Assembly (NCBI GenBank): GCA_014437165.1
Contig: GCA_014437165.1_4090.3
DNA length: 64,000 nucleotides
Reading direction: 5' to 3' (one strand)
Origin: a phage
A model generated the notes under the pieces. That model was not told the origin of the DNA and did not search any database. It saw only the letters and a list, made by a program, of their open reading frames with translations. A program made the translations under genes and the position numbers. Of the stretch, positions 6,261 to 7,608 are shown one piece after another. How positions within the stretch are numbered: the stretch's first letter is position 1; every line of letters begins with the position of its first letter.

Positions 6261-6497
6261 ATGAAACTATCTTTTATACGATTAGCTGAATTCTTCGGTA
6301 CTGATGTAATTACTTTACAACAAATTGCAGATAATACTTCATTAAGTACACAAGAAGTACTTGACTTAGATGTAATTCAGTGCGATAATACTTCCATCGA
6401 TTTCAAAGAAGGTCTTGTCGAAAAAGATAAGATTAAAGCTAAGATTAATGGTGCTGGGCGGGTTCAGTACTGGAAAGGAGTATTAAGTAATGTTTGA
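6261..6497 (+). CDS. hypothetical protein
   Basis: RBS AAGAGG; 78 aa. Confidence 0.5.
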   Translation: MKLSFIRLAEFFGTDVITLQQIADNTSLSTQEVLDLDVIQCDNTSIDFKEGLVEKDKIKAKINGAGRVQYWKGVLSNV

Positions 6498-7608
6498 ACA
6501 GTATTATTTAAATGAAGATGGTGAAAAAGTTTATTTTCATGAAGAACTTGGTATGCGTTTTGAATGGATGAAGCCTGAAGATATAAAAAGGGTTTCAAAA
6601 GGACTCACTGCTAAGGATCATGTTGATGACATAGAAGCAAAATTAAAAAACAAAGATATTGACAATATTACTATTATTGGATTATCAGTTAAATCATCAC
6701 GTGAGTTTGGTAAAAACGGAAATAGTAATAACAATTTACTGATTATGTATAATGGGGTATTGTATGATAATTATAAAATAACTGGTTTAAAAACAAAGCT
6801 TGAAAAAATAACAAACAATAAATTCAAGCCATCATTTACCTATACAGATGAAAATTATTATTACTATGTAACCAAATTGGGTTCTCTTGAGGAAAGAGGA
6901 TGCTATATATATGAAAATGAACATTTAGACAATGGGATAATGTCATATATTAAATTCACATATTCCGATGGATTTACACAACCACGAAGAATAAATGATA
7001 TAATTACAAAAACATCAATGAACGTTAGATATTTTATAACACCTGAAATGCGTGAAACAATTGCTAACACACGCTGTAATGAACTAGGATATACATTAAA
7101 AGAAGTTTACAAGAAATCAAATGGTCGTTATTATGTAAAATATATATGTGATAAAGGACACGAGTGTAATCAAGACTATTATGCGTTTACTAGTAAACAA
7201 GCACAAAAGTGTGGATGCTGTTCCCAATTAGAAACACACTCATTTGGTCATAATGATTGTAAAGAGTTTTTGAGAGGAATGTTTGTTACTGAAAGAGAGA
7301 AAACATTTCCTGATTTAAAAAATAAATCAAAACTTCCATATGATTTTTATATTCGTGATATTAATACGTTATTTGAATATGATGGTAGTAATCACTTTGA
7401 AGAACGTGAATCAGGATGGGGAAACGGACTTATGAGGAAAAAACACGATAAAATCAAAACAGAATACGCAATAAAAAATGGATATAACTTCATTCGTATT
7501 GCGTATTATGAAGACCATATTGGAGCATTGAAATCTTTCCTTAAACTCATTGAAGAGAATCCAGGAAAGCAAATCGTGCAGATCTATGGTGAAGTACAAA
7601 TTATCTAA
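6490..7608 (+). CDS. putative homing-endonuclease-like nuclease (C-terminal Vsr/DUF559-like PD-(D/E)xK-type motif)
   Basis: C-terminal PYDFYI..LFEYDGSNHFEE..GWGNG..KHDKIKTEYAIKNGYNFIRIAY pattern (E-x-DG..H...D..K...G..IRI); Cys/His cluster upstream; very AT-rich N-terminal half. Confidence 0.45.
   Translation: MFEQYYLNEDGEKVYFHEELGMRFEWMKPEDIKRVSKGLTAKDHVDDIEAKLKNKDIDNITIIGLSVKSSREFGKNGNSNNNLLIMYNGVLYDNYKITGLKTKLEKITNNKFKPSFTYTDENYYYYVTKLGSLEERGCYIYENEHLDNGIMSYIKFTYSDGFTQPRRINDIITKTSMNVRYFITPEMRETIANTRCNELGYTLKEVYKKSNGRYYVKYICDKGHECNQDYYAFTSKQAQKCGCCSQLETHSFGHNDCKEFLRGMFVTEREKTFPDLKNKSKLPYDFYIRDINTLFEYDGSNHFEERESGWGNGLMRKKHDKIKTEYAIKNGYNFIRIAYYEDHIGALKSFLKLIEENPGKQIVQIYGEVQII

Follow-up and report, generated by a model that had tools for sequence, protein, structure and literature searches.

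A probable homing endonuclease gene of Vsr-like EDxHD type, free-standing in a variable intergenic slot of an Asteriusvirus phage

We analyzed a 64,000-nucleotide (nt) stretch of phage DNA (GenBank assembly GCA_014437165.1, contig GCA_014437165.1_4090.3; "the window" below means this whole stretch) with respect to a gene at 6490-7608, which a first-pass annotation made from the sequence alone had described as free-standing and homing-endonuclease-like. By megablast, the region belongs to an Asteriusvirus jumbo coliphage, with 98.8% identity to vB_EcoM_G17 (G17) and Sharanji across 4 kb, and 97.4% to JP4. The gene is, as had been claimed, an intact, uninterrupted open reading frame (ORF) of 372 amino acids (aa) on the + strand; earlier database labels are "hypothetical protein" in G17 and "homing endonuclease" in JP4. 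Its neighbors, denV, a gene for a 119-aa protein, the 78-aa gene p78 and a gene for a 256-aa P-loop ATPase, are all at least 95% identical among relatives. An Rfam scan of the window matched no intron and no Rfam family, and the gene is therefore free-standing; no second copy of it, or of the alternative occupants of its position, was found in the window. The features of the locus are:

6199..6234, +, left PeSL-like element: hairpin AAAGGGTTGAC-TTCG-GTCAGCCCTTT, with TTGACT at 6205-6210 and TATAAT at 6229-6234
6261..6497, +, p78, 78-aa gene of PHROG 34150 (function unknown)
6490..7608, +, probable homing-endonuclease gene, 372 aa plus stop: uninterrupted ORF with matches to PHROG 559, 9084 and 7140
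6490..6849, +, N-terminal domain, aa 1-120, beta3-alpha-beta-alpha-beta2-alpha in the model
7036..7227, +, Cys/His zinc-finger-like module, aa 183-246, a helix and three strands, C219/H223 ... C241/C244
7237..7509, +, Vsr-like PD-(D/E)xK (EDxHD) nuclease core, aa 250-340, from model and motif
7297-7299, 7342-7344, 7381-7383, 7393-7395 and 7447-7449, +, catalytic codons of E270, D285, D298, H302 and D320, respectively
7510..7605, +, C-terminal tail, aa 341-372, a helix and a beta-hairpin, ...FLKLIEENPGKQIVQIYGEVQII, from alignments; predicted local distance difference test score (pLDDT) above 92
7613..7648, +, right PeSL-like element: exact repeat, promoter and fold, with a terminator annotation in G17
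7677-8447, +, P-loop ATPase gene, 256 aa, downstream of the right PeSL

The 372-aa protein matches PHROG 559 at 7e-24 (aa 85-348), PHROG 9084 ("homing endonuclease") at 4e-16 and PHROG 7140 ("intron encoded nuclease") at 2e-10. In an AlphaFold2 model built on 22 homologues (mean pLDDT 83), the catalytic domain has the Vsr endonuclease fold; the closest structural match is E. coli Vsr, which Foldseek also puts first, and the next neighbors, VRR-NUC, TnsA, Hjc and AbaSI, are PD-(D/E)xK nucleases. Sequence identity to E. coli Vsr is 7%. The DUF559 and Vsr families of Pfam do not match the protein at E values up to 10, and among the relatives one of the 22 matches at 0.008 and the TH47 protein at 0.062; the resemblance to DUF559/Vsr is one of fold and motif only. 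Alignment of the family profile to a single Vsr sequence with hhalign was uninformative. The label "HNH endonuclease", which PHROG 559 and the homologue in phage Ec-M-J carry, is rejected as a misnomer: the protein has no HNH match in Pfam, and its structural neighbors are Vsr and other PD-(D/E)xK enzymes, with no HNH enzyme among them.

The EDxHD motif consists of E270, D285, D298, H302 and D320. The alignment of the 22 homologues shows no variation at D285, E296, D298, G299, H302, D320 and K323, and at least 90% conservation of E270. The pattern on which the first-pass annotation had based its assignment, FEYDGSNHFEE...KHDKIKTEYAIKNGYNFIRIAY, is present at aa 295-339, and the Cys/His cluster reported ahead of it was recovered as well (C219, H223, C225, C241, C243, C244, H250, H254 and C257). 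The active site of I-Bth0305I comprises E170, D196, N208, H213 and D222 (PMC3239194); the following equivalences were read by eye from the motif, not from a computed superposition:

E270: I-Bth0305I E170, Vsr E25
D285: I-Bth0305I D196, Vsr D51
D298: I-Bth0305I N208, Vsr H64
H302: I-Bth0305I H213, Vsr H69
D320: I-Bth0305I D222, Vsr D97

In this alignment, ...V[D196]FYL...EVN208G..W[H213]...NKD222KRKLSELHSKGYRVLTIE of 3r3p is matched by ...YD285FYI...EYD298GSNH302...KHD320KIKTEYAIKNGYNFIRIAY of the 372-aa protein, and DKIKTEYAIKNGYNFIRI of the latter parallels DKRKLSELHSKGYRVLTI of I-Bth0305I with identical spacing. The similarity to characterized EDxHD members runs via PHROG 9084 and 7140 and via a homologue from Klebsiella phage Muenster with 29% identity, not through a direct profile match. 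The Muenster homologue matches the C-terminal profile at 2e-25 and was labeled by its depositors "homing endonuclease EDxHD; HHpred 3R3P 97%"; its search against PDB sequences returned spurious RING-finger matches only. In fold, motif and genomic context, the protein agrees with the EDxHD family.

We compared about 25 related genomes across the slot, defined as the interval from p78 to the ATPase gene, with the following occupants:

Gene of the window, at least 99.7% aa identity: G17, Sharanji and JP4 only
59.7% allele: Ec-M-J
34.5% allele: TH47
Other Vsr-type genes with different N-termini: ELP-22, SHEFM2K, JNE01 and EJP2
PHROG-681 endonucleases: 121Q (gp221, three CapR domains), UB, PBECO4, slurp01, phAPEC6 and E9.1
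Two ORFs without a family match: Turkey3
Nothing after p78 (PeSL directly): SD-15_S21
Neither p78 nor nuclease: SP27

The check on related phages that the first-pass annotation had proposed thus showed the site to be empty in some and occupied by diverged alleles or unrelated endonucleases in others; with a nuclease fold predicted and the gene missing from many relatives, its interpretation as a homing-endonuclease-type gene holds up. Thirteen different spacings separate p78 from the ATPase gene, the shortest being 68 nt and the longest 2528 nt. Homology of the window to 121Q, UB, slurp01, phAPEC6 and SD-15_S21 is interrupted from 6485-6492 to 7608-7612; that to ELP-22 resumes at 7456, and that to TH47 reaches 6546 on the left and is restored from 7452. 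The nuclease ORF alone is the most frequent unit of variation, as opposed to a two-gene cassette bounded by PeSL elements, and p78 keeps an identity of about 95% across 29 phage records irrespective of the gene that follows it.

The 3' end of p78 extends 8 nt into the nuclease gene (ATGTTTGA) and contains the Shine-Dalgarno sequence of the nuclease gene, AAAGGAG, at 6474-6480. In the empty allele of the Salmonella phage SD-15_S21, ...GGAGTTTTAAGTAA is followed directly by AAAAAGGGTTGAC, and p78 continues through the PeSL hairpin to end in ...LSKKRVDFGRPFLL instead of ...LSNV; the stop codon of p78 in the window, within the same ATGTTTGA, is therefore provided by the inserted nuclease gene.

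A 72% homologue on the metagenomic contig SRR25434965_284841 occupies the same slot. That slot holds, besides the 72% allele, an 89-aa ORF and an opposite-strand 325-aa gene with a faint DUF4379 match (3291-4529 of the compared stretch), possibly another nuclease-like gene within this gap. Other family members are found at unrelated loci: a 44% homologue on a metagenomic contig, A4_535 of phage A4 and the Muenster protein. In E9.1, the 628-aa PHROG-681 endonuclease of slurp01 and phAPEC6 is split into ORFs of 449 and 193 aa (3230-5193 of the compared E9.1 locus), probably an endonuclease gene in decay.

Between the nuclease alleles of the window and Ec-M-J, synonymous divergence (dS) is 1.2 and the ratio of nonsynonymous to synonymous divergence (dN/dS) is 0.27, ranging by domain from 0.15 to 0.35 (0.24 in the nuclease core; 0.15 in the C-terminal tail, where dS is 0.67). 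The low ratio indicates purifying selection on the nuclease as a protein. In the flanks of the same genome pair, dS is 0.18 in p78 and 0.57 in the ATPase gene, and the nuclease alleles therefore either predate their flanks or are foreign to them. Between the window and JP4, 2 positions differ in 6459-8266, versus 18 in 6193-6458 and about 47 in 8290-8590; this near-identical tract of 1.8 kb, which begins 30 nt before the ORF, is the product of a recent exchange.

Outside the nuclease core, aa 183-246 are predicted to form a divergent DNA-binding domain of the CapR/DUF4379/DUF723 type. The Pfam model of CapR aligns with aa 188-243 below threshold (E 0.24; 12.1 bits versus a cut-off of 24.2; model positions 2-66 of 67), C241 and C244 are conserved in at least 90% of the 22 homologues, and the region upstream of the nuclease in these relatives matches DUF4379 in 11, CapR in 6 (best 3e-37) and DUF723 in 5. 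In phage homing endonucleases, CapR serves as a DNA-binding zinc finger, and modules of the CapR/DUF4379/DUF723 type have been described for the T5orf172 homing endonucleases of phages (PMC8096241; PMC10448857). We also considered aa 118-182 as a degenerate copy of the module (aa 183-247), an idea based on similar secondary structure and on the homologue P0004, which keeps C/H...C..C there; it was abandoned when hhalign gave no support. The N-terminal domain, aa 1-120, presumably has a role in DNA recognition or regulation, and the N-terminal 200 residues have only 9 representative relatives among 1.84 billion proteins.

The first-pass annotation had suggested that the N-terminal half is a fused or acquired module of distinct, AT-rich composition. 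The modularity of the protein stands, as family members have the C-terminal nuclease in common and differ in their upstream parts, and so does the low GC content, which at 29.2% for the whole ORF compares with a window mean of 35.3% and lies at the 2nd percentile among windows of the same size. The contrast between the halves does not: GC is 28.2% in the first 200 codons and 30.4% in the last 172, with 19.5% versus 21.4% at third codon positions (GC3), and p78 has a GC3 of 21.5%, close to that of the nuclease ORF. AT-richness was dropped as a sign of foreign origin, since the window has unrelated genes for membrane proteins that are just as AT-rich; its most AT-rich stretches are small membrane-protein genes at about 8.5-11.3 kb, not nucleases. 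These genes form a tandem array at 8513-11293, with at least 8 paralogs of about 104-141 aa, neighbors about 47% identical and a GC content of 25-30%, which matches the nuclease gene in AT-richness.

The last 30 residues of the protein are near-identical among family members that are divergent elsewhere, and the last 150 nt or so of the ORF are common to the ELP-22 and TH47 alleles at the DNA level. The tail of the Vsr-type nucleases (...SFLKLIEENPGKQIVQIYGEVQII) also resembles that of the PHROG-681 endonucleases from the same slot (...KQFLAKHEGEYIIERDINGIFGEVIL), represented by 121Q gp221 (4637-6097 of the compared 121Q locus) and PBECO4 gp306 (2830-3966 of the compared PBECO4 locus). This resemblance suggests a C-terminal module common to two different nuclease domains.

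A 33-nt repeat, GGGTTGACTTCGGTCAGCCCTTTTTGCTATAAT, has exact copies at 4920, 6202 and 7616 and one with 3 mismatches at 425, where none is expected by chance. It folds as a AAAGGGTTGAC/UUCG/GUCAGCCCUUU hairpin (-17.6 kcal/mol, z = -5.3) followed by a U-run, and embedded in it is a sigma-70-type promoter, TTGACT-18-TATAAT with a TG extension, that matches at 11 of 12 positions. Our terminator scanner missed the hairpins at the PeSL sites, probably because the A/T-extended stem absorbs the T-run; they are supported by direct folding and by the G17 record, which annotates terminators at both. The right element is the right boundary of all insertions and deletions in the slot. A repeated hairpin terminator that overlaps a sigma-70-type early promoter and lies at such boundaries fits the description of the PeSL promoter-terminator composites of T4-like phages (PMC4122927); the likeness is one of form and behavior, as the host of the elements here is an Asteriusvirus and not a T4-like phage. 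The PeSL pair at 6202 and 7616, between which the first-pass annotation had placed the nuclease gene, is real but brackets a cassette of two genes, p78 and the nuclease. The left element is presumed to be the early promoter of this bicistron, and the right one would serve both as terminator of its transcript and as promoter of the ATPase gene. In SP27, a single PeSL stands in place of PeSL-p78-nuclease-PeSL, with the left flank fitting the left copy and the right flank the right copy, so that SP27 looks like a PeSL-PeSL deletion derivative.

We consider it likely that a homing endonuclease of the Vsr-like EDxHD lineage is encoded here, by a free-standing gene that resides in an intergenic slot of this Asteriusvirus. 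According to this proposal, the nuclease gene has no promoter of its own; it would be co-transcribed with p78 from the early promoter in the left PeSL, with transcription ending at the right PeSL, and translated from the Shine-Dalgarno sequence in the last codons of p78. DNA recognition would fall to the zinc-finger module, probably together with the N-terminal domain, and cleavage to a metal-dependent Vsr-type site (E270, D285, D298, H302 and D320), with the protein probably acting as a dimer like I-Bth0305I. In a mixed infection, the protein would cleave near the locus in related genomes that lack the gene or hold another occupant, whereupon recombinational repair from the carrier genome would copy the gene, with p78 and the PeSL/ATPase gene as homology arms. 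Early co-transcription with p78, cleavage of non-self genomes and copying by repair are inferred from the pattern of the free-standing endonucleases of T4 (PMC2988022) and of Hef.

Several observations weigh against this proposal. (i) No target site could be deduced. (ii) Pfam gives nothing significant for the 372-aa protein, the best match being the CapR alignment described above, and NCBIfam likewise gives nothing significant; phmmer and the family profile have no significant match among PDB sequences, where 3r3p is not reached and the Vsr-like AbaSI appears only at E 0.89. (iii) The NUMOD/helix-turn-helix (HTH) region of the prototype, I-Bth0305I, has no match in the protein in Pfam or NCBIfam; because the EDxHD family is defined by its catalytic motif, we regard this as an architectural variant, not as exclusion from the family. 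(iv) The state of SP27 is best explained by PeSL-PeSL recombination, for which no endonuclease is needed. (v) SP27, without the gene, has the same right-flank haplotype as the JP4 tract. The tract is therefore not attributable to homing specifically, and we rejected it as proof of co-conversion; the region is mosaic in general, and co-conversion by homing is inseparable from ordinary recombination.

Among the characterized systems closest to this gene is I-Bth0305I of the EDxHD family (PDB 3R3P; PMC3239194), which is encoded in a group I intron of recA and has two NUMOD/HTH motifs, whereas the gene of the window is free-standing and its product combines a zinc-finger-like Cys/His module, a 120-aa N-terminal domain of unknown fold and an added, conserved 30-aa C-terminal tail. 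The "x" of the motif is Asp here (EYDG, as in DUF559) and Asn there, and the spacing from H to D is 18 residues here and 9 there. Core fold and catalytic residues are also alike in E. coli Vsr and DUF559 proteins (PDB 1CW0, 3HRL), but E. coli Vsr nicks at mismatches and has just one domain, with a zinc site and intercalating Trp residues, in contrast to the multidomain product of a sporadic phage gene. Hef of the T4-related phage U5 (Sandegren et al. 2005), which PMC3239194 places in the Vsr-like family, is described, as cited in PMC3239194 and PMC2988022, as likewise free-standing between genes of a large virulent coliphage and replacing the endonuclease genes of relatives; we liken the two by this description only. 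Hef lies in the nrd region of T-even phages, and the gene of the window between p78 and the P-loop ATPase gene of an Asteriusvirus.

Free-standing endonuclease cassettes without a promoter are typical of T4 (PMC2988022). The seg and mob genes of T4 ("intronless homing"; PMC2988022) are likewise promoter-less, located between conserved genes, co-transcribed with the upstream gene and sporadic in relatives, and the gene of the window resembles them in lying between conserved genes outside any intron or intein and in a sporadic distribution with breakpoints at the gene ends. Spread by double-strand-break repair with co-conversion of the flanks would be expected of both; the nucleases of seg and mob are of the GIY-YIG or HNH type, unlike the Vsr-like PD-(D/E)xK domain of the present protein. 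The ICP1-type T5orf172 endonucleases, with arrays of CapR, DUF723 and DUF4379 (PMC8096241; PMC10448857), have zinc fingers of the kind predicted here, likewise in a "beads on a string" layout; they, too, lie at the boundaries of recombination tracts, with domain shuffling between alleles, and PHROG-681 endonucleases with three CapR domains fill the same slot in 121Q and UB. Unlike them, the protein studied here has a Vsr-like and not a T5orf172/GIY-YIG-like catalytic domain, and its zinc finger falls below Pfam thresholds.

Among the alternatives, the strongest is that the nuclease is passive accessory cargo that serves the phage, for example in degrading the DNA of the host or of competitors, and that PeSL elements and general recombination shuffle the slot without any self-spread. 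The flanking of the cassette by PeSL elements, its clean PeSL-to-PeSL loss in SP27 and flank haplotypes that are mosaic whatever the occupant agree with this view, and PeSL-mediated shuffling is documented in T4-like phages (PMC2839356; PMC4122927). However, most of the variation is not PeSL-to-PeSL, and its left breakpoint is at the start codon of the nuclease gene, inside the cassette. Moreover, the occupants that can be assigned to a family (10 alleles scanned) are all endonucleases of site-specific type (PHROG 559/9084 or 681), many with zinc-finger modules, which points to selfish nuclease turnover and not to a generic accessory slot, and family members also occur at unrelated loci. We therefore hold the cargo explanation to be unlikely.

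It is considerably less probable that the protein is a domesticated endonuclease whose main present role is that of a regulator with sequence-specific DNA binding, in the manner of PLE CapR or the autorepressor activity of I-TevI. A module of the CapR type is predicted, CapR stems from phage homing endonucleases and represses transcription (PMC8096241), and the gene adjoins promoter-bearing PeSL elements; yet all five catalytic residues are intact and conserved in the family (E270 in at least 90%, the others invariant), the nuclease core is under purifying selection, and the gene is dispensable, being absent from most relatives. We give marginally less credence still to an inactive remnant in decay, late in the homing cycle: endonucleases of this slot do decay, as the split gene of E9.1 indicates, but here four genomes have an unbroken frame of the same or almost the same sequence, the active-site residues are conserved, and dN/dS against the 60% allele is low. 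That the protein is a Vsr-type mismatch-repair nickase, acting in T:G very-short-patch repair within phage DNA metabolism, can practically be discounted, in spite of its top structural match to E. coli Vsr and the nearby repair gene denV, given the 7% identity, the 250 extra N-terminal residues with DNA-binding modules of homing-endonuclease type, and a sporadic distribution with replacement by unrelated endonucleases that is unexpected for a repair function. No rival fits nuclease-for-nuclease turnover at exact ORF boundaries as well as homing does.

A wider scenario, which we put forward as speculative and rather doubtful, is that the slot is an arena in which endonucleases from two nuclease superfamilies, Vsr-like and PHROG-681, repeatedly displace each other, drawing on a common pool of zinc fingers and a similar tail (FL...GEV.I). 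The conserved 5' ends (about 19 codons) and 3' ends (about 50 codons) of the Vsr-type alleles might then be homology arms for swapping the specificity-determining middle, and the 120-aa N-terminal domain might be a new fold for DNA recognition or regulation.

In our assessment, the gene is a well-supported but ordinary mobile gene and no new kind of system. The locus nevertheless documents the turnover of selfish nucleases in a jumbo-phage genome at the resolution of a single ORF, corrects the labels "hypothetical protein" (G17) and "HNH endonuclease" (Ec-M-J homologue, PHROG 559), and indicates that zinc-finger modules known from T5orf172 endonucleases are also paired with a Vsr-like nuclease. 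The family could yield new site-specific nucleases, and the locus could act as a natural marker-exclusion system in Asteriusvirus crosses.

Variation extends to the neighboring genes. The P-loop ATPase gene occurs in Asteriusviruses as two allele classes, with aa identities of at least 95% versus about 59% (the latter in, e.g., JNE01, CRJP21 and UE-S1), and shows abrupt haplotype switches near 8290; the neighborhood is therefore strongly mosaic. In JP4 and Ec-M-J, a 137-aa gene labeled "HNH endonuclease" (98-511 of the compared JP4 locus, 627-1040 of the compared Ec-M-J locus) lies just upstream of denV beside a PeSL, where the window has none (4913-4980, PeSL at 4920); this site, about 1.5 kb away, forms a further endonuclease slot. 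JP4 also has an extra 203-aa ORF without a Pfam match (1827-2438 of the compared JP4 locus), which lies at the left PeSL (6196-6260 in the window) and separates the 119-aa gene from p78. The segment at 5385-5775 of the window, covering the 3' end of denV and a 64-aa gene, is missing from slurp01 and phAPEC6, whose denV, like that of PBECO4, is shorter (435 nt). In TH47, the 64-aa and 119-aa genes have no tblastn match.

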